Assembly (NCBI GenBank): GCA_963828885.1
Contig: CAWHGC010000010.1
Coordinates: 28,915-92,914 of the forward strand
From: an uncultured Actinomycetes bacterium
Lineage (GTDB): Bacteria; Actinomycetota; UBA4738; HRBIN12
Direction: 5' to 3'
Length of the DNA: 64,000 nucleotides
Under the pieces are notes generated by a model. It searched no databases. It was given only the letters and a program-made list of their open reading frames with translations, and was not told where the DNA came from. Positions 20,700 through 29,627 of this stretch are shown one piece after another (the first letter of the stretch is position 1; the number at the start of each line of letters is the position of its first letter). The position numbers and the translations under genes are program-made.

Positions 20700-21552
20700 A
20701 TGAGCGATCAGATCGCGTCCGCAGCAGGCACCGTCACCGTCGGGGACCTGACCGTGAACCGCATGGGCTTCGGCGCCATGCGGATCACCGGGGACGGCGT
20801 GTGGGGACCGCCTGCCGACCCGGACGAGTGCCGGCGGGTCCTGCGACGTGCGCTGGAGCTCGGGGTGAACTTCATCGACACGGCGAACTCCTACGGCCCC
20901 CATGTGAGCGAGGAGTTGATCGCGGAGGCGCTGTTCCCGTACCCCGACGGTCTCGTCATCGCGACGAAGGCGGGGTTCACCCGGCCGGGTCCCGGCCGCT
21001 GGAAGGCCGACGGGCGTCCCGAGCAGATCCGCGAGGCCATCGAGGGGAGCCTTCGCCGGCTGCGGGTCGAGCAGATCGACCTGTACCAGGTGCACACGGT
21101 GGACCGGAAGGTGCCGTACGCGGAGACGGTCGGGGCCTTCCGCGATCTCCAGCAGGCCGGCAAGGTGCGGCACATCGGCGTCAGCAACGTGAACGTGGAG
21201 CAGCTGGCCGAGGCCCGCGGCATCGTCGAGGTCGTGTCGGTCCAGAACCTCTACAACCTCACGGACCGCACGAGCGAGCCGGTCCTGGAGGTCTGCGACC
21301 GCGAGAGCCTGCCGTTCATCCCGTGGTTCCCGCTCGCGAACAGCGAGCTGGCCGGTGCGGCGATCGATCGGGTGGCCGCAGCGGCGCGGCCTCACGCCCA
21401 TGCAGGTCGGGCTCGCCTGGCTGCTGCACCGCTCGAAGATCATGCTGCCGATCCCCGGCACGTCGAAGGTCGCGCACCTGGAGGAGAACACGGCCGCCGC
21501 CGAGGCCGAGCTCACGGACGACGACCTCCACGAGCTCGAGGGCGCCACCTAG
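20700..21552 (+). pseudogene. Aldo/keto reductase, one frame break near 21360
   Basis: ...GFGAMRITGDGVWGPP...NFIDTANSYGP...IDLYQVH...HIGVSNV. Then ORF 21355..21552: [34 protein letters not shown]. Confidence 0.88.
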
Positions 21553-22068
21553 GACGTGGGCGGGACCTCGACGACGCGGTCGTCCTCGAGGCCGAAGTCC
21601 CAGACGTCGATGAACGGCGGTTCGACGCCGAGCGTCGTGAGGGCGGTGCAGATCTGGCTGCGGTGATCGGTGCCGTGGTGCAGCGCCTGCGCGAGCCGGA
21701 TACCGAGCGGGGCGTGCGTCTCGGAGCCGTCATCGCGCTGCCTGGTGAGAACGGTCTCGGGGTCGGGGTCGCTCGCCAGCAGCTGTGACCAGGCGGCGCC
21801 GTGCTCCTCCATGACCGTTGCGGAGCTCCGGCAGTTGCATGACGTCCTCGTCGATGAGCGGCGTTCGGCCTCCGGTCATGACGAACAGGTAGTTGGCGTC
21901 GGCGCCGACCAGATGACGCTGCGTATCGAGGATCGAGCCGTAGGTGCCGGGGACGGAGGTCGCCAGCTGCTCGGGAGTGAGCTCGAGGCACACGTCGATC
22001 AGCCGCAGCGTCGCCCACACGTGGTGCTTGAACCCGTCCTCCAGCAACGACCTGGTCATGCCCGTCAC
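21549..22068 (-). pseudogene. DinB-family (DinB_2-like) protein, one frame break near 21815
   Basis: MTGMTRSLLEDGFKHHVWATLRLIDVCLELTPEQL...DTQRHLVGAD (ORF 21730..22068), joined to ...LAQALHHGTDHRSQICTALTTLG (ORF 21549..21812). Confidence 0.7.
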
Positions 22069-23155: not shown

Positions 23156-23852
23156 ATGGCGCCCGAGGTCTCGAACCCGACGGAGCGCGACGGCGAGATC
23201 CGCGTCGTCTTCCTGGACATCGGCGGCGTGATGTACGACGACTCCGTGTACGCCCGGTCGTGGGCGCGGGCCCTGCGCGAGTCCGGCGCCGTCTTCACCG
23301 ATCAGGAGTTCGACGACGGAGTACGCGGCCGCGCGCGCCGCGCAGGCCGGATCGTTCCGGCGACGGCTGACCTCGCGGTTCCTGGGGCCGGACGCCGACA
23401 TCGAGCCGGTGGAGGCGATCGCGAAGGAGCACTGGGCGTACCCTCCCGACGCGCTGTACCCCGACGTGCTGCCCTGCCTCGAGCGGCTGGCCGGCCGCTA
23501 CCGCCTGGGCATCCTCGCGAACCAGCCGAGCCTGGTGCGGCAGGCGCTGGAGCGCGACGGCATCGACCGGTTCATGGAGGTGTGGGGCGTGTCCGACGAC
23601 GTCGGGCTCGCGAAGCCCGATCCCCGGTTCTTCGCGCACGTGCTGTACCTGGCCGGCGAGGCGCCGCCGCACGCGGTCATGGTCGGCGACCGCCTGGACT
23701 ACGACGTGCGGCCGGCGCGGCGGGCCGGCATGCGAACGGTGTGGGTCCTGCGCGGCGAGGCGCCCGACGACCCCACGCCCGAGCAGCTGGCCGAGGCCGA
23801 CGTGGCGATCCGCGGACTGGACGAGCTGCCGGGGGCGTTGGAACGGATATGA
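23156..23852 (+). pseudogene. HAD-superfamily hydrolase, one frame break near 23318
   Basis: IRVVFLDIGGVMYDD (motif I), then the frame of ORF 23409..23852: ...LGILANQP...GLAKPDPRFF...VMVGDRLDYDV. Confidence 0.8.
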
Positions 23853-25151
23853 GCGGTGCGGCGCAGCGGCGGATCCTCATCGTGGGCGGCGGGTTCATCG
23901 GGATGTACGCGGCCCGGCGGCTCGAACGGCTCACGCGCGCCGGCCACCGCGTCACGCTCGTGAACCCCGAGAACTTCATGCAGTACCAGCCGTTCCTGCC
24001 CGAGGTGGCCTCGGGCACGATCGATCCGCGTGCGGTCGTGGTGCCGCTCCGGCAGGTGCTGCGGAAGACCGAGCTGTTGATCGGCGAGGTGGAGCGGGTC
24101 GACCACGAGGCCCGCCTGGCCTCGGTTCGGCTGCCCGACGGCTCGCTGCGCGAGGAGCCGTACGACATCGTGATCCTGGGCGCCGGCTCCCGGTCGCGCA
24201 CGCTGCCGATCCCCGGCCTCGCCGAGCACGGCATCGGGTTCAAGACCGTGACGGAGGCGATCTACCTGCGGAACCGGGTGTTGTCGAACCTCGACACGGC
24301 GGCCGAGACGCCCGACGAGAACCTGCGGCGGTCGCTGCTGACGTTCGTGTTCGTCGGCGGCGGCTACGCGGGCGTCGAGGCGCTGGCGGAGCTGGAGGAC
24401 CTGGCGCGCCACGCGGTGAAGCTGTATCCGCGGCTCGAGGTCGCGGATCTGCGATGGGTGCTGGTCGAGGCGGCCGGGCGCATCCTGCCCGAGCTCGGCG
24501 AGGACCTGGCGGGCTACGCGCTCGCGCGGCTCGAGGAGCGTGGCATCGAGGTTCGCCTGTCGACGAGACTGGAGTCGGCCGTCGACGGGTGGATCGCGCT
24601 GAGCGACGGCGAGCGGTTCCGCGGCGACACGCTGGTGTGGACGGCGGGCGTGAAGGCGTCGCCACTCGCGCGCCGGTCGGGGCTCCCGTGCGACGAGGCC
24701 GGGCGGGTGCTGGTCGACGAGACGCTGCACGTGGCCGGGGTGCCGGACGCGTGGGCCGCCGGCGACGTGGCGGCGGTGCCCGACCGGGTGACGGGCGGGG
24801 TCGCGCCGCCCAGCGCGCAGTACGCGCTGCGCGAGGCCCGGCGGCTGGCCGGCAACGTGCGGGCGTCGATCGAGGGCGGGACCGCGAGGCCGTTCCGCTG
24901 GCGCAACCTGGGCGGGCTGTGTGCCCTGGGGCGCTACCGCGGTGTGGCGAAGGTGATGGGCGTGAAGGTCCGCGGGTTCCCGGCGTGGTTCCTGCACCGT
25001 ACGTACCACCTGGCGCAGATGCCGACGATCGGTCGCAAGGTCCGCATCATGCTCGACTGGACGGTGGCGCTGTTCTTCCCGCGCGACCTGACGCAGCTCG
25101 GGTCGCTGGAGCACCCGCGTGAGCCGTTCGAACGCGCGATCGGGCGACTAG
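23849..25151 (+). CDS. ndh: Type II NADH dehydrogenase (NDH-2); stop is reached only if one G of GGG 25142-25144 is removed
   Basis: MSGAAQRRILIVGGGFIGMYAARRL...TFVFVGGGYAGVEALAEL...AAGDVAAVP...FFPRDLTQLGSLEHPREPFERAIG. As given, the frame reads on antisense through the CBS gene to 26119. Confidence 0.85.
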
Positions 25152-25612
25152 CCCTTGCCGCGCTGGCGCTGGAGGTCGCTCGCGGCCTGCAGCGCCGCGT
25201 GGCTCCGCTCGATGTCGGGCATCTCGTGCCCGCCCGCGAGCTCCTCGGCCGCCCACCGCGTGAGGTCGCGGATCGAGATGATGCCGACGAGCTTGCCCTT
25301 GTCGACGATGGGCAGGTGGCGGATGTTGCGGCTCGCCATGTGATCGGCCGCCTTCGCGATGTCGGTCTTCGAGGAGACGGTCTCGATGTCGCGGCGCGTC
25401 ATGCCGTGGGCGACCTTCACGGACTGCGGGTCGCCCCCGGCCGCCACGAGGTTCACGATGTCGCGCTCGGTCAGGATGCCGGCGAGCTTGGCGCCGTCGA
25501 GGACGACGACCGAGGAGATGCCGTTCGTGCGCATGACCTTCGCGACGTCGGCGAACGTGTCGTCGGCGGCCGCCGTCTTCACGTCCGTGTGCATGATCTC
25601 TCCGACCTGCAT
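25148..25612 (-). CDS. CBS-domain pair protein
   Basis: MQVGEIMHTDVKTAAADDTFADVAKVMRTNGISSVVVLDGAKLAGILTERDIV...HLPIVDKGKLVGIISIRDL. GGAGG upstream of Met18 of ORF 25148..25663. Confidence 0.85.
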   Translation of the reverse strand: MQVGEIMHTDVKTAAADDTFADVAKVMRTNGISSVVVLDGAKLAGILTERDIVNLVAAGGDPQSVKVAHGMTRRDIETVSSKTDIAKAADHMASRNIRHLPIVDKGKLVGIISIRDLTRWAAEELAGGHEMPDIERSHAALQAASDLQRQRGKG

Positions 25613-25816
25613 CGTGTGTGCCTCCTCGTTGGCCCGTGGTGCCCGGGCGCGCGGCGTGTGCATGGTGCCGGGCGCGGCGCTCGGGCCGACAGGGTACCTC
25701 GCCCGGTGGCCGGGACGGTATCGGGCGGCCCCGGGATCTCAGGAAACCCACAGGCGAATCTCCCAGCCCTCCCAGCACGGCCGGGCAACCTCGAACGTGA
25801 CCGGAAGGAGCGACCC

Positions 25817-26119
25817 GTGGCACCGAGTCCGCAGACCCGCGACGCCGGCGTTCGCCGCGTCGCCCGCCTCACGAGCTGGGCCATGGCCGGCGCCGTCGCG
25901 CTCTCGGCCGCCGTCACGTTCGTCGTCGCGAAGGCCCAGAACGGGAGCGCGGCGAACAGCTCGAACACCACTTCCTCCACCGACAGCACCGCGCCGGTCG
26001 TCATCGGGCCCGGCACCGGGACCGATGGCGGCGGCCTACAACCCCCGATCTCGGTGCCCCAGCAGGGCGGCACCGGCGGTGGCAGCGGCGGCGGCGTCGC
26101 GAACTCGGGCGGGTCCTGA
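25817..26119 (+). CDS. Small membrane-anchored Ser/Thr/Gly-rich protein, first gene of the apbE operon
   Basis: GTG 25817 after GGAAGGAG: VAPSPQTRDAGVRRVARLTSWAMAGAVALSAAVTFVVAKAQNGSAANSSNTTSSTDS...GGTGGGSGGGVANSGGS. TGATG overlap with apbE. Confidence 0.55.
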   Translation: MAPSPQTRDAGVRRVARLTSWAMAGAVALSAAVTFVVAKAQNGSAANSSNTTSSTDSTAPVVIGPGTGTDGGGLQPPISVPQQGGTGGGSGGGVANSGGS

Positions 26120-27031
26120 TGGACGAGTTCGGCCGCATCCGGTTCCCCGCGCTCGGCACCACGGCCGTCGTGGTGACGGCCGACGCCGACCGCGTCGTCG
26201 CGGCCGCCCTCGAGGTCCGGCGCGAGGTCGACGCGATCGACCTTGCCTGTAGCCGCTTCCGCGGCGACTCGGACCTCGCGCGCGTGAACGCCGGCGCCGG
26301 CGGCTGGGTCTCGGTCGGTCCGCTCCTGCTCGAGGCCGTCGAGGTCGCGCTGCGCGCCGCCCGTCTCACCGGCGGCGATGTCGACCCGACCGTCGCGACC
26401 TCCATGATCGCGAACGGCTACGACCGCGACTTCGCCGCCATCGCGCCGGATGGTCCGCGGCGACCCGCCCCGGCCGGCGCCCGGCTGGCGCACGGTCGAG
26501 GTCGACCCGGAGCGTTCCCGGATCCGTGTGCCCGCGGGATCCGGGCTGGACCTCGGCGCCACCGCGAAGGCCCTGGCCGCGGATCGGGCGGCGCGCGCCG
26601 CCGCCCGATCCGCCCGGACCGGCGTCGTCGTGAGCCTCGGCGGCGACCTCGCGATCGCGGGTGAGCCGCCGGCAGGCGGATGGCCGCTCGGCGTCGGCGA
26701 CGCGCACCAGGGCGACGCCGACGAGACGGTGCGCCTCGAGGGCGGCGGCCTGGCGACCTCGAGCACGACCGTGCGCCGGTGGCGGCGCGACGGCCGCGAC
26801 GTCCATCACATCGTCGACCCGCGCACCGGCGCGCCCGCCGACGTCGTCTGGCGGACCGTGACGGTGGCGGCGGCCTCGTGCGTGGACGCGAACACCGCGG
26901 CGACGGCCTCGATCGTTCGGGGCGCGTCGGCGCCGGCATGGCTCGGCGGCTTCGGCCTGCCCTCGCGGCTCGTCACGCCCGAGGGCGAGGTGGTCCGCGT
27001 CGCCGGCTGGCCGCGGGAGGCGCCGCCGTGA
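26119..27031 (+). pseudogene. apbE: FAD:protein FMN transferase ApbE, one frame break near 26455
   Basis: MDEFGRIRFPALGTTAVVVT...SRFRGDSDLARVN...DVDPTV, then ORF 26450..27031: LDLGATAKALAADRAA...VSLGGDLAIAG...ATSSTTVRRW...HHIVDPRTG. Confidence 0.85.
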
Positions 27032-28114
27032 CGTTGCTCGCCGTGACCTCGGGCAGCGCCCTGTGGTACCTGACGCGCGCGACCGGCGTGGTCTCGCTGC
27101 TGCTGCTCACCGGTGTGGCCCTGCTGGGGCTCGCCGGCGCGATGCAATGGGCGTCGCCGCGATGGCCACGCTTCGTCACGCAGGGCCTGCACAAGAACCT
27201 CTCGCTGATGGCGGTCGCCTTCGTCGCCGTGCACGTCGCGTCGACCGTGATCGACGGGTTCGCGCCGATCCGCTGGATCGACGCCGTCGTGCCGTTCGTC
27301 TCCGCGTACCGGCCGCTGTGGCTCGGCCTGGGCGCGCTCGCGTTCGACCTGTTCCTCGCGCTCATCGTCACGAGCCTGCTGCGCGCGCGGCTCGGGTTCC
27401 GCACGTGGCGCGCCGTGCACTGGCTCGCGTACGGATGTTGGCCGGTCGCCGTCGTGCACAGCCTCGGGACCGGCAGCGACGCCGGCGAGCCGTGGATGCT
27501 CGCCCTCGTCGCGGCCTGCGTCGGCTCGGTGCTCGCGGCCGCCGTGTGGCGCGCCGGACGCGACCCCGCGCGGCGGGGCGCGCTGCAGGGACTCGCCGTC
27601 GGCGCAGGCGGCGTCGCGTCGGTCGCGCTCGTCGGCTGGCTCGCGGTCGGGCCGCTCGCGACCGGCTGGGCGACCCGGGCCGGCACCCCGCCGAGCCTGT
27701 TGGGCGCTGGATCCGCCGCAACCACCACGGCCGTGCATCACGTCACGCAGCTCGTGCTGCCGGCGACCTCGACCTTCGACGGGACGGCGACGCAGCAGCA
27801 GGGCGCGTCCGGCGGCATGGAGCTCGAGTTCCGCGGCACGCTGTCGGGCAGCTCGGACCTCGTGCTCGACATCCGGCTCACGGGGCAGCTCGCAGCAGAG
27901 CGGCGGGTTCTTCGTGCAGGGCGGGCACGTCACGCTCGGCCCGCGCGACGACCAGAGCCGGTTCACGGGGCAGATCGCCGGCGTCAGCAACGGCCAGATC
28001 AGTTCGAAGCTCGAGGACCACAGCGGCGACGCCGTCACGCTGGACGCCGCCCTCCAGGTGTTGGACGCCGCCGGGACCGCCGGCGGCCGCGTGCAACTGG
28101 CGCTCGCGGGATGA
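27028..28114 (+). pseudogene. Ferric-reductase-like (FRD/MsrQ-YedZ type) six-TM haem-b protein with ~130-aa C-terminal soluble domain, one frame break near 27895
   Basis: GTG 27028 (GTGA overlap): VTLLAVTSGSALWYLTRATGVVSLLLL...HKNLSLMAVAFVAVHVASTV...WRAVHWLAYGCWPVAVVHSLGTG. Tail in ORF 27914..28114. Confidence 0.75.
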
Positions 28115-29412
28115 GCGCCACGCAGATGCTTCGTGAACCGGTGCCCGGCCCGTCGGGCCTGCCCCGGCTGCTCGGGGGACCGATCGTGCACGGCGGATGG
28201 GTGGACCTCGCCGGCCATCGCGCCGCGATGCCCGCCCCGCCGGCGCCGGGCTCCCGTCCCGACGAGCAGCTCATGCTCGAGGTCGAGGCCTCCGGCCTGC
28301 GCGGCCGCGGGGGCGCGGCCTTTCCGACCGCGGTGAAGCTGCGGGCGGTGGCCGCCGGCCGAGGCCGCCCCGTCGTCGTCGTCAACGGCTCCGAGGGCGA
28401 GCCGGCGAGCCGCAAGGACCGGCTGCTGCTGACGACGCGTCCCCACCTGGTGCTGGACGGCGCGCTGGTGGCGGCGGCCGCGGTGGGCGCCGGCCGCATC
28501 GTGATCGGCATCGACGAGGGGGAGGCCGACGCACAGGCGTCCGTGGCCCGAGCGCTCGAGGAGCGCCGCGCCGACCGGCTGCTGGCGGCGGCGACCGTCG
28601 TGCCGATCCCGCACCGATACGTGGCCGGCGAGGAGCGCTCGCTCGTGCGGCTGATCGACGGCGGCCCGGCGATCCCGTGGGCCGCGCCGCCGCGCCCGTT
28701 CGAGCGGGGGGTCGGCGGCCGCCCGACGCTCGTGCAGAACGTGGAGACGCTCGCGCACCTCGCGCAGATCGCGGCGTTCGGGTCCGAATGGTTCCGCGAG
28801 CTGGGCACGACGCACGAACCGGGCAGCCGGCTGGTGACGGTGTCGGGCGCGGTCGCACAGCCGGGCGTGTACGAGATCGCGTCGGGCACGAAGATCTCGA
28901 GCCTGCTCCGAGCGGTCGGCGGTTCGGCCGACGGGTACTCGGCGGTGCTGCTCGGTGGGTACTTCGGCGCGTGGCTGGACGCTTCGCGGGCGGCCGACGC
29001 GCGGCTGAGCGACGACGATCTTCGAACGGTGGGCGCCGGCCTCGGCTCGGGCGTCGTGCACTTCTTCCCGGCCGGCGCGTGCGGGCTGGTCGAGTCGGCG
29101 CGGGTGGCGCGGTGGTTCGCGCGGCAGAGCGCCGACCAGTGCGGCCCGTGTGTCCACGGCCTCGCGGCGATCGGGGGAGGGCTGGCGCAGCTCGCCCGCC
29201 GCGAGGCCGACGCTGCCGTCACCGAACGTCTGCTGCGGTGGGCCGGCGACGTCGAGGGACGCGGCGCCTGCCGGCTGCCCGACGGTGCGGTTCGGTTCGT
29301 GCGCAGCGCGCTGACGGTGTTCGGCGACGAGGTCGCGAACCATCGCGCCGGCGTGTGTTCGGCAACGATGCACGAGCAGGTGCTGCCGCTGGACGCTCGA
29401 GGTTCGCGATGA
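28111..29412 (+). CDS. NuoF-like protein (NADH dehydrogenase 51-kDa subunit family: FMN/NAD(P)H site, SLBB, FeS region)
   Basis: 433 aa inside ORF 26680..29412: ...ASGLRGRGGAAFPTAVKL...VVVNGSEGEPASRKDRLLL...RPTLVQNVETLAHLA...QCGPCVHG...GACRLPDG. Confidence 0.8.
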   Translation: MSATQMLREPVPGPSGLPRLLGGPIVHGGWVDLAGHRAAMPAPPAPGSRPDEQLMLEVEASGLRGRGGAAFPTAVKLRAVAAGRGRPVVVVNGSEGEPASRKDRLLLTTRPHLVLDGALVAAAAVGAGRIVIGIDEGEADAQASVARALEERRADRLLAAATVVPIPHRYVAGEERSLVRLIDGGPAIPWAAPPRPFERGVGGRPTLVQNVETLAHLAQIAAFGSEWFRELGTTHEPGSRLVTVSGAVAQPGVYEIASGTKISSLLRAVGGSADGYSAVLLGGYFGAWLDASRAADARLSDDDLRTVGAGLGSGVVHFFPAGACGLVESARVARWFARQSADQCGPCVHGLAAIGGGLAQLARREADAAVTERLLRWAGDVEGRGACRLPDGAVRFVRSALTVFGDEVANHRAGVCSATMHEQVLPLDARGSR

Positions 29413-29627
29413 CGGCGCCGAGCCGCTTGACCGTGGACCCGATCGCGTGCGACGGCCATGGGCTGTGCGCCGACCTGTTCCCGGAGCGGATCCGCCTGGA
29501 CGACTGGGGCTTCCCCATCATCGAGGGCGGGGAGATCGGCCCCGAGCTCGAGGCCCACGCCCGCCGCGCGGTGTCCGCGTGCCCGGTGCTGGCGTTGCGG
29601 CTCGCGCGCCGCAGCCGGCCGGGCTAG
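29409..29627 (+). CDS. Small ferredoxin (single-cluster actinobacterial type)
   Basis: ATGA overlap: MTAPSRLTVDPIACDGHGLCADLFPERIRLDDWGFPIIEGGEIGPELEAHARRAVSACPVLALRLARR. Confidence 0.75.
   Translation: MTAPSRLTVDPIACDGHGLCADLFPERIRLDDWGFPIIEGGEIGPELEAHARRAVSACPVLALRLARRSRPG

Follow-up and report, generated by a model that had tools for sequence, protein, structure and literature searches.

Organization of the operon

The window analyzed in this work is a 64,000-nucleotide stretch of DNA from an uncultured Actinomycetes bacterium (assembly GCA_963828885.1, contig CAWHGC010000010.1, positions 28,915 to 92,914), which was found to carry an operon of five plus-strand genes encoding a small membrane-anchored protein, the flavin transferase ApbE, a dihaem cytochrome, a NuoF-like protein and a ferredoxin. 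The G+C content of the region is 74–78%, and coding frames were assigned from a plot of third-position GC (GC3). The first gene (25817..26119) encodes a small tail protein of 100 amino acids (aa), and the same gene is present in independent gene calls of relatives. Its GTG start at 25817 stands 6 nt behind a Shine-Dalgarno sequence identified by direct reading (GGAAGGAG, 25803..25810), and the codons of its terminal Ser-Gly-Gly-Ser (26105..26116) include a candidate ApbE flavinylation site at the last Ser. The second gene (26119..27031) encodes ApbE, a flavin adenine dinucleotide (FAD):protein flavin mononucleotide (FMN) transferase without signal peptide, which is matched by PF02424 in two pieces, and the third (27028..28114) encodes a ferric-reductase-domain (FRD), MsrQ-like dihaem membrane protein (PF01794); the reading frames of both are broken. 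A NuoF-like NAD(P)H-binding FMN/iron-sulfur (FeS) protein is encoded at 28111..29412 (Complex1_51K, PF01512; SLBB, PF10531; NADH_4Fe-4S, PF10589), followed by a single-cluster ferredoxin with the arrangement CxxHxxC...CP at 29409..29627 (Fer4_15, PF13459). A first-pass annotation of the window had joined the five genes through four stop/start overlaps, and all four junctions (TGATG at 26117, GTGA at 27028, ATGA at 28111 and ATGA at 29409) were verified exactly as claimed.

The GC3 plot changes from frame 1 to frame 2 in ApbE (near 26445–26465) and likewise in the FRD gene (near 27893), in each case by one extra base. Both breaks are most likely assembly errors, because the ApbE and FRD orthologues of the closest genome (L001, ~81% amino-acid identity) are unbroken, contigs from four independent soil runs, in DNA that is 90–99% identical, have one base fewer at both 26459/26464 and 27893/27916, and frame switches recur in many unrelated genes of the window, for example an aldo-keto reductase (near 21350) and a HAD hydrolase (near 23300). 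That two neighbouring genes are each broken by a one-base change could also point to real mutations, in which case the operon would be non-functional in this genome. Such decay would be surprising, however, given that GC3 is at least 0.9 on both sides of each break with no further damage visible, and given the shorter contigs of soil strains with 95–99% identity and the same type of break in several unrelated genes. Many genes of the window, among them those at 20700–21790 and 23156–23852, change frame without a stop, a pattern which suggests an indel-prone (perhaps long-read) assembly.

Conservation of the gene cluster

For a survey of synteny, one genome per species was scanned with the NuoF-like protein, and the window proteins were mapped on the 40 loci obtained. 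ApbE, FRD and NuoF genes are adjacent in 23 of the 40, of which 19 are complete with the small gene and the ferredoxin and 4 are cut by contig ends. A further four loci (L008, L014, L017, and L020) have the small gene, FRD, NuoF and ferredoxin with no adjacent ApbE, three have FRD, NuoF and ferredoxin cut at the contig start, and ten have only NuoF, with or without ferredoxin. The hosts are Actinomycetota (Solirubrobacterales, Gaiellales, and Acidimicrobiia), Candidatus Dormibacterota and Chloroflexota, nearly all of them represented by metagenome-assembled genomes from soil. On further contigs with gene calls made by others, the same five genes were found with the same Pfam content. The module is strongly syntenic, and the ApbE/FRD/NuoF-like/ferredoxin core is conserved across three phyla.

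Variants of the arrangement were also observed. Two Chloroflexota loci (L008 and L009) contain two FRD paralogues, one within the small-FRD-NuoF-ferredoxin group and the second after a small-ApbE pair located ~2 kb downstream. At L041 (5875–7919), L042 and L043, the operon is immediately preceded, in the same orientation, by genes for a response regulator of the OmpR type and for a HAMP/HisKA kinase; the small proteins of these three loci end in a Cys loop, and the upstream kinase and regulator hint at two-component control of the operon.

The FRD cytochrome and its C-terminal barrel

The assignment of the third gene product as a six-transmembrane-helix FRD/MsrQ-type protein was borne out by its PF01794 match and by six long helices in a structural model. 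This model was obtained with AlphaFold2 (AF2) for the L001 orthologue using 125 homologues, and has a mean predicted local distance difference test (pLDDT) score of 84.8. Beyond the six helices it contains a short surface-helix region with a conserved GP..GWA.RAGTP motif, a low-confidence linker and an eight-strand beta domain at pLDDT >90. The paired His residues pointed out earlier occur as H..13..H, twice, on helices 2 and 4 (H55, H69, H131, and H144); they are invariant in 125 of 125 homologues and are predicted to bind haem. Net charges of +2.2, +3.9, and +2.7 were calculated for loops 1, 3, and 5, respectively, with values of about zero for the N-terminal tail and loops 2 and 4, and by the positive-inside rule both the N-terminus and the C-terminal domain are therefore predicted to lie outside. 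In Foldseek comparisons the membrane part of the model matches SpNOX and STEAP1/2. The family is large, with more than 5000 members carrying PF01794 only.

The ~130-aa soluble C-terminal domain described in the first pass is real as a soluble tail, but it consists of the linker plus a barrel of ~115 aa with eight strands (~27770–28111). When folded alone the tail reached a pLDDT of 93 as an up-and-down (meander) barrel, the nearest solved neighbours of which are streptavidin, the cyclase PloI4 and designed barrels (TM-scores 0.45–0.59, E >0.03). The domain has no Pfam match at E ≤ 1, and the possibility that it is a divergent FMN_bind domain (PF04205) was rejected on this ground and on the ground that the barrel fold differs from that of FMN_bind. 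The sequence FDGTATQQ within the tail had been suggested as a flavin site, which is contradicted by the free variation of the aligned positions in relatives (LTGTAAQ, LAGSVRQ, LSGRISQ, and FQGRVHE). A 'GATVC' motif found in some Dormibacterota tails was likewise discarded as a flavin site, as it is not conserved. In Acidimicrobiia the FRD protein is shorter (193–236 aa) and has neither the sixth helix nor the tail, and the FRD tail therefore cannot be the universal target of ApbE.

The NuoF-like protein and the ferredoxin

The NuoF-like protein, recognized earlier by its GLRGRGGA motif, SLBB domain and Cys motif, was confirmed as such by Pfam, with the qualification that only three of the Cys residues remain. 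It retains the motifs for FMN and NADH (GLRGRGGAGFPT, NG.EGEP..KD, and YVAGEE) and aligns to Nqo1 of Thermus thermophilus with E = 4.9e-50. Its score against the NuoF family model TIGR01959 of NCBIfam is 197 bits with a cut-off of 559, which places it outside the true complex I NuoF proteins. The N3-type motif reads CGPCVHG vs. CGKCTPC in Nqo1, and none of the 34 sequences covering this stretch has the third Cys. The family keeps three of the four N3 Cys residues (QCGxC...RGAC; 29132–29152 and 29264–29284 in the window), and many members have His-His after the last Cys, where the window protein has Arg-Leu. No NuoE-like gene was found in the operon. The depth of soil-metagenome contigs rises 10- to 50-fold over 28246–28379, the region of the GLRGRGGA and NGSEGEP motifs; this jump is not taken as a signal of copy number, because conserved NuoF motifs presumably recruit contigs from many organisms.

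The small ferredoxin predicted as the fifth product was upheld by its match to Fer4_15, and its nearest solved relatives are small single-cluster ferredoxins from Mycobacterium tuberculosis, Rhodopseudomonas palustris and Pyrococcus furiosus. A NuoF-like/ferredoxin pair without FRD or ApbE was observed at L012, L025, L027, L029–L031 and L034, which include Amycolatopsis, Streptomyces and Mycobacteriaceae. As the pair occurs on its own at these loci, it would appear to be a portable NAD(P)H-to-ferredoxin donor unit which is used in other contexts.

ApbE

By both fold and sequence the second gene product is a normal ApbE. It aligns to the structure 1vrm of the Protein Data Bank (PDB) with E = 2.9e-26 (range for 1vrm, 3pnd, and 2o18, 1e-16 to 1e-26), and the motifs HH-x-DPRTG, GATAK, GGD, and DA..T are kept in the alignment, as is the aromatic residue of CSRF. 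In 23 of 23 relatives ApbE starts 0–10 residues from the edge of the domain, in several cases with an in-frame stop just upstream, and this clade of ApbE therefore has no signal peptide or lipobox, the features by which extracytosolic ApbEs are recognized. Cytosolic ApbEs are known, for example, in Klebsiella (PMC12052999). The first-pass annotation had named a cytoplasmic position of both ApbE and the FRD tail as the topology that would speak against its proposal. The part concerning ApbE agrees with the leaderless state of the enzyme in all 23 relatives, whereas the FRD tail is predicted outside.

Cytoplasmic ApbE could in principle serve the donor side of the system, either as an FAD pyrophosphatase that supplies FMN or by fixing FMN in the NuoF-like protein, and the small protein would then have nothing to do with flavin. 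The absence of an export signal would suit this explanation. In addition, the Treponema pallidum homologue is known to act as a metal-dependent FAD pyrophosphatase (PMC4767422), and engineered 'flavin-fixing' allows ApbE to lock FMN into existing FMN sites (PMC12052999). However, neither the NuoF-like protein nor the ferredoxin nor FRD has a conserved Ser/Thr motif, the residue which would distinguish transferases from pyrophosphatases is aromatic (CSRF), as in transferases, and the conserved SG[GA]S-COOH of the small protein (see below) would be left unexplained. This role of ApbE is accordingly regarded as very unlikely.

A small protein with a flavinylation-like C-terminus

The first gene, the product of which had been noted as a membrane-anchored Ser/Thr/Gly-rich protein, was found to be a real gene which is conserved in relatives. 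The protein begins with a basic motif (TRDAGVRRVARLT; RD.GL.R[VI]...T.W in the family), followed by one hydrophobic helix (~25877–25930) and the residues A-K-A. In 101 of 137 representatives the hydrophobic segment is followed by A-x-[AS]-x-[PS]-G, which is a possible signal-peptidase site. The linker is disordered and rich in A/P/S/T/G, often with an LQPP motif that is also present in the window protein, and the window protein ends ...VANSGGS-COOH. Of the 27 FRD loci with any upstream sequence, 26 have a homologue immediately before ApbE, or before FRD if ApbE is missing; the lone exception (L028) is cut inside ApbE. Pfam and NCBIfam hold no model for the family, and its members are labelled 'hypothetical protein' in the sources.

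A profile search of 1.84 billion representative proteins yielded 1202 clusters at E ≤ 0.001. The C-terminus takes the form [ST]-G-x-[ST] in 137 of the best 150 of these 1202 representatives, although the search profile contained the C-terminal columns and the motif counts are somewhat biased by this. Among the same best 150, SGGS was found 112 times, SGAS 17 times, SGSS 3 times, and SGAT, TGAS, TGGS, SGTS, and SGQS once each. Counted by position in the 137 representatives, −4 is Ser in 135 and Thr in 2, −3 is Gly in all 137, −2 is Gly in 113 and Ala in 19, and −1 is Ser in 136 and Thr in 1, with V/A/I at −6 and V/S/T at −5. Judged by its sequence, the end of the small protein is a near-canonical form of the ApbE motif [S/T]-G-A-[S/T], with Gly usually replacing Ala, positioned at the very C-terminus. 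A review of ApbE states that seven residues are enough for a tag, that a terminal position is the most effective, that the leading Asp can almost be dispensed with and that Ser may replace Thr (PMC12052999).

The earlier statement that none of the five proteins has a canonical flavin motif still applies to ApbE, FRD, the NuoF-like protein and the ferredoxin, in which no [ST]G[AS][ST] is conserved; the small protein has a near-canonical end. Of the two ApbE substrates then put forward, the small protein is the better candidate, the relevant feature being its conserved ...SGGS end and not, as had been supposed, its richness in Ser and Thr. According to Pfam, an FMN-binding domain (PF04205) is absent from the five operon products and from the cluster products of relatives. 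Since there is no such domain, FDGTAT is not conserved, ApbE is leaderless and a family ending in SG[GA]S is present, the small protein is probably a fold-less ApbE substrate and hence the 'missing' flavin carrier.

Three other explanations for features of the small gene were tried and rejected. Firstly, SGGS could be a by-product of a Shine-Dalgarno sequence (GGNGGN) for apbE. Synonymous variation is seen in the Gly and Ser codons of the motif, with all four Gly codons and several Ser codons in use, and SGAS variants exist; in four loci where FRD follows, the motif is kept 19–35 nt from the next start, and it is therefore not such a by-product. Secondly, the small open reading frame and ApbE could be one protein split by a frame error, a programmed frameshift or read-through. 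This was rejected because the two genes occur in all three relative frames among relatives, always with a stop between them. Thirdly, the small protein could carry a twin-arginine translocation (Tat) signal, with ApbE exported as a hitch-hiker. A twin arginine precedes the hydrophobic segment in no more than 51 of 137 representatives, with ALHN, GLEK, and GLYL among the variants, and a Tat signal is therefore unlikely.

Proposed electron path

The list of parts drawn up in the first pass, leading from NAD(P)H through FMN/FeS and ferredoxin and across two haems to the outside, is correct by gene content. From gene content, synteny, motifs and predicted fold and topology we infer the redox steps, the flavinylation and the compartment of flavinylation that are described here. 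With somewhat better than even confidence, the operon is considered to encode an electron conduit across the membrane, driven by NAD(P)H and of the MsrQ-like/NuoF-like type, the outer acceptor of which is probably FMN on the last Ser of the small protein. In this path the cytoplasmic NuoF-like protein would oxidise NAD(P)H on FMN and pass electrons via an FeS cluster to the small ferredoxin, which would reduce the inner haem of the FRD cytochrome. Transfer from the inner to the outer haem would then carry the electron across the membrane. The acceptor at the outer face would be an FMN in covalent linkage with the final Ser of the small protein, at the end of its disordered S/T/G/P tail, with the protein anchored, or secreted, via its N-terminal hydrophobic segment. 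The leaderless ApbE would attach FMN to the unfolded tail prior to its export, presumably in the cytoplasm with its supply of FAD, and the eight-strand barrel may dock the flavin or the final acceptor, which could be Fe(III), O2 or another oxidant.

Several points weigh against placing the flavin on the small protein, in addition to the bias of the motif counts given above. Of the 137 representatives, 82% have Gly at −2, where D-x-x-[ST]-G-A-[ST] has Ala, and none has Asp at −6. Acidimicrobiales keep ApbE, yet their small proteins end in ...C-T-T-T-P-S-G-x-x-T-C-x and not in SG[GA]S; the C-terminal Cys pair of these proteins likely forms a disulfide loop. The small protein is also found without an adjacent ApbE in four loci. 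As ApbE is predicted inside and the end of the tail outside, flavinylation would need to precede export. There is no precedent for this order, which is nevertheless plausible given that FAD is found in the cytoplasm and that the tail is disordered. Finally, no experimental work on the NuoF-like subtype was found in the literature searched.

These observations bear on a further explanation, in which the conduit holds but the small protein is merely a structural or assembly subunit, the conserved C-terminus of which might, for example, plug into the cytochrome or its barrel, while ApbE serves a protein encoded elsewhere (of the FMN_bind, DUF2271, or NqrB/RnfD type). The four loci in which the small protein accompanies FRD, NuoF and ferredoxin without ApbE (L008, L014, L017, and L020), the Acidimicrobiales variant without a terminal SG[GA]S, and the non-canonical motif with mostly Gly at −2 and no Asp would all be accommodated by such a subunit. 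On the other hand, translational coupling links ApbE with the small gene in 23 loci, the C-terminal variants (SGGS, SGAS, SGAT, and TGAS) stay exactly within the flavinylation motif, and this ApbE clade is leaderless, unlike the ApbEs which serve exported FMN_bind proteins. A purely structural role is therefore considered rather unlikely, and a flavin-carrying small protein is preferred.

If the small protein does carry flavin, a more far-reaching form of the proposal may be put forward tentatively, although it is less likely than not. The small proteins would be natural 'flavin tags' and the first fold-less ApbE substrates, with FMN esterified to the last Ser of S-G-[G/A]-S-COOH in the cytoplasm by the translationally coupled, leaderless ApbE and the tail then threaded out, to act as a leash of 50–130 residues anchored next to the dihaem cytochrome. 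This leash, with the avidin-like barrel possibly serving as a socket for the flavin, would take electrons from NAD(P)H through the cell wall to acceptors outside.

In the Acidimicrobiales loci L016 (7381–8399), L023, L037 and L040, two tandem small-protein paralogues were observed, both ending in ...TTTVCTT[TS]PSG..TC.

Operon limits and neighbouring genes

Upstream of the operon, Ndh-2 is encoded on the plus strand at 23849–25150 (Pfam Pyr_redox_2), and a CBS-pair gene is located between it and the small gene on the minus strand (25148–25663). The best solved relatives of Ndh-2 are type-II NADH dehydrogenases, with 9mqy first (2e-52), followed by the enzymes of Staphylococcus aureus and Caldalkalibacillus. 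The CBS gene is separated from the small gene by a promoter gap of 150 bp, which ends in GGAAGGAG, 6 nt and the GTG at 25817. Downstream, pmbA converges on the ferredoxin gene. The divergent CBS gene, the convergent pmbA and the overlapping junctions indicate that the transcription unit consists of the five genes without Ndh-2; a scan for terminators and promoters found nothing on the plus strand. Ndh-2 had been described as lying immediately upstream of the module, which does not hold in view of the intervening minus-strand gene and gap. It was rejected as a member of the module, as it belongs to a separate transcription unit and is absent beside the module in 38 of 40 loci.

Ndh-2 and the CBS gene accompany the module in the nearest clade only, and in L045 an extra gene (FAD_binding_4) separates Ndh-2 further from the module. 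The CBS-pair gene is found at the same place in the nearest relatives (L001 and L044–L046); its product may act on the module as a regulator or sensor, or may have no connection with it.

Comparison with known systems

'MsrQ-like' flavinylation-associated systems have been defined by the presence of a PF01794 gene in a cluster with apbE or an FMN-binding gene, and are mostly actinobacterial; 31 MsrQ-like clusters include a NuoF-like PF10589 protein, for which NAD(P)H has been proposed as the cytosolic donor (Meheust et al., 2021; PMC8238504). Structures of MsrQ-like systems are discussed by Huang et al. (2024; bioRxiv 10.1101/2024.03.13.584918). By its gene content the operon is a member of this catalogued MsrQ-like/NuoF-like class, with PF01794 directly after PF02424, PF10589 in the cluster, and six transmembrane helices with four His residues. 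Because this core matches the 'MsrQ-like, NuoF-like' clusters of PMC8238504, the general reading is already in the literature as a prediction. Shared with the class are the six-helix dihaem PF01794 protein beside apbE, the NuoF-like PF10589 protein as presumed entry point for NAD(P)H, the mostly actinobacterial distribution and the proposed direction from the cytosol to the outside. However, the class 'typically', though not obligatorily, has a gene with an FMN-binding domain (PF04205), which the operon does not have, and the survey kept only components bearing signal peptides, whereas the ApbE of the operon is leaderless. That survey does not describe a small protein ending in SG[GA]S, a ferredoxin or a C-terminal barrel. 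No mention was found in the literature searched of a cluster without an FMN domain, of non-conserved FDGTAT, of a leaderless ApbE or of an S-G-[G/A]-S-COOH family.

With the Flavin-tag (Tong et al., 2021; PMC12052999) the small protein shares the principle that a short unstructured terminal peptide ending in S/T-G-A-S/T suffices for ApbE. That tag is synthetic and has the canonical D-x-x-S-G-A-T, whereas the operon motif is natural, has V/A/I at −6, mostly Gly at −2 and a Ser end, and sits on a membrane-tethered disordered protein. The ApbE of Klebsiella pneumoniae (PMC12052999) is similarly cytoplasmic, has no signal peptide and acts on the product of a neighbouring gene, as is predicted for the operon. 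Its substrate, however, is the folded FMN_bind domain of a soluble NADH:fumarate reductase, in contrast to a fold-less candidate with a tail predicted outside.

The likeness to the extracellular electron transfer (EET) loci of Firmicutes drawn in the first pass is not supported, as Ndh-2 is only a neighbour and the cluster contains no FMN_bind protein. The Listeria-type system (Ndh2, EetA/B, PplA, and FmnB) does share a monoderm host, flavinylation of the ApbE type and a flavinylated carrier at the outer face, the latter being a proposal in the present case. In Listeria, FmnB is an exported protein, and electrons reach the lipoprotein PplA, which has folded FMN_bind domains, from Ndh2 and a quinone pool, whereas the membrane step of the operon would be a dihaem FRD protein fed by the NuoF-like protein and ferredoxin. 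As indicated by Foldseek, the dihaem transmembrane core with two His pairs 13 residues apart is shared with NOX, STEAP and SpNOX, in common with NAD(P)H as the ultimate donor. These proteins have a fused FAD/NADPH dehydrogenase domain in place of which the operon has a separate NuoF-like protein and ferredoxin, and a sixth helix and a beta-barrel, the latter predicted outside, are additional features of the operon FRD.

Significance

The window itself is one more member of the system, with assembly errors, and its added value is modest. What appears to be new relative to the published class, as judged from sequence comparison, is the combination of no FMN-binding domain, a leaderless ApbE and a small protein of an unnamed family whose C-terminus resembles a flavinylation motif. 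It was reported that some apbE genes are still without a known substrate after the survey of Meheust et al. (PMC8238504). A domain-less, C-terminally tagged peptide, if true, would fill part of this gap and would mean that covalent flavinylation is possible without a flavin-binding fold. Attachment of the flavin prior to export, if true, would explain how monoderm soil bacteria can furnish the outer surface with flavin although no FAD leaves the cell. With over 5000 homologues of the cytochrome and over 1000 representative clusters of the small protein, the system concerns uncultured soil Actinomycetota, Dormibacterota and Chloroflexota, and its function, whether in iron reduction, extracellular respiration or oxidant production, may matter for the redox chemistry of soil.

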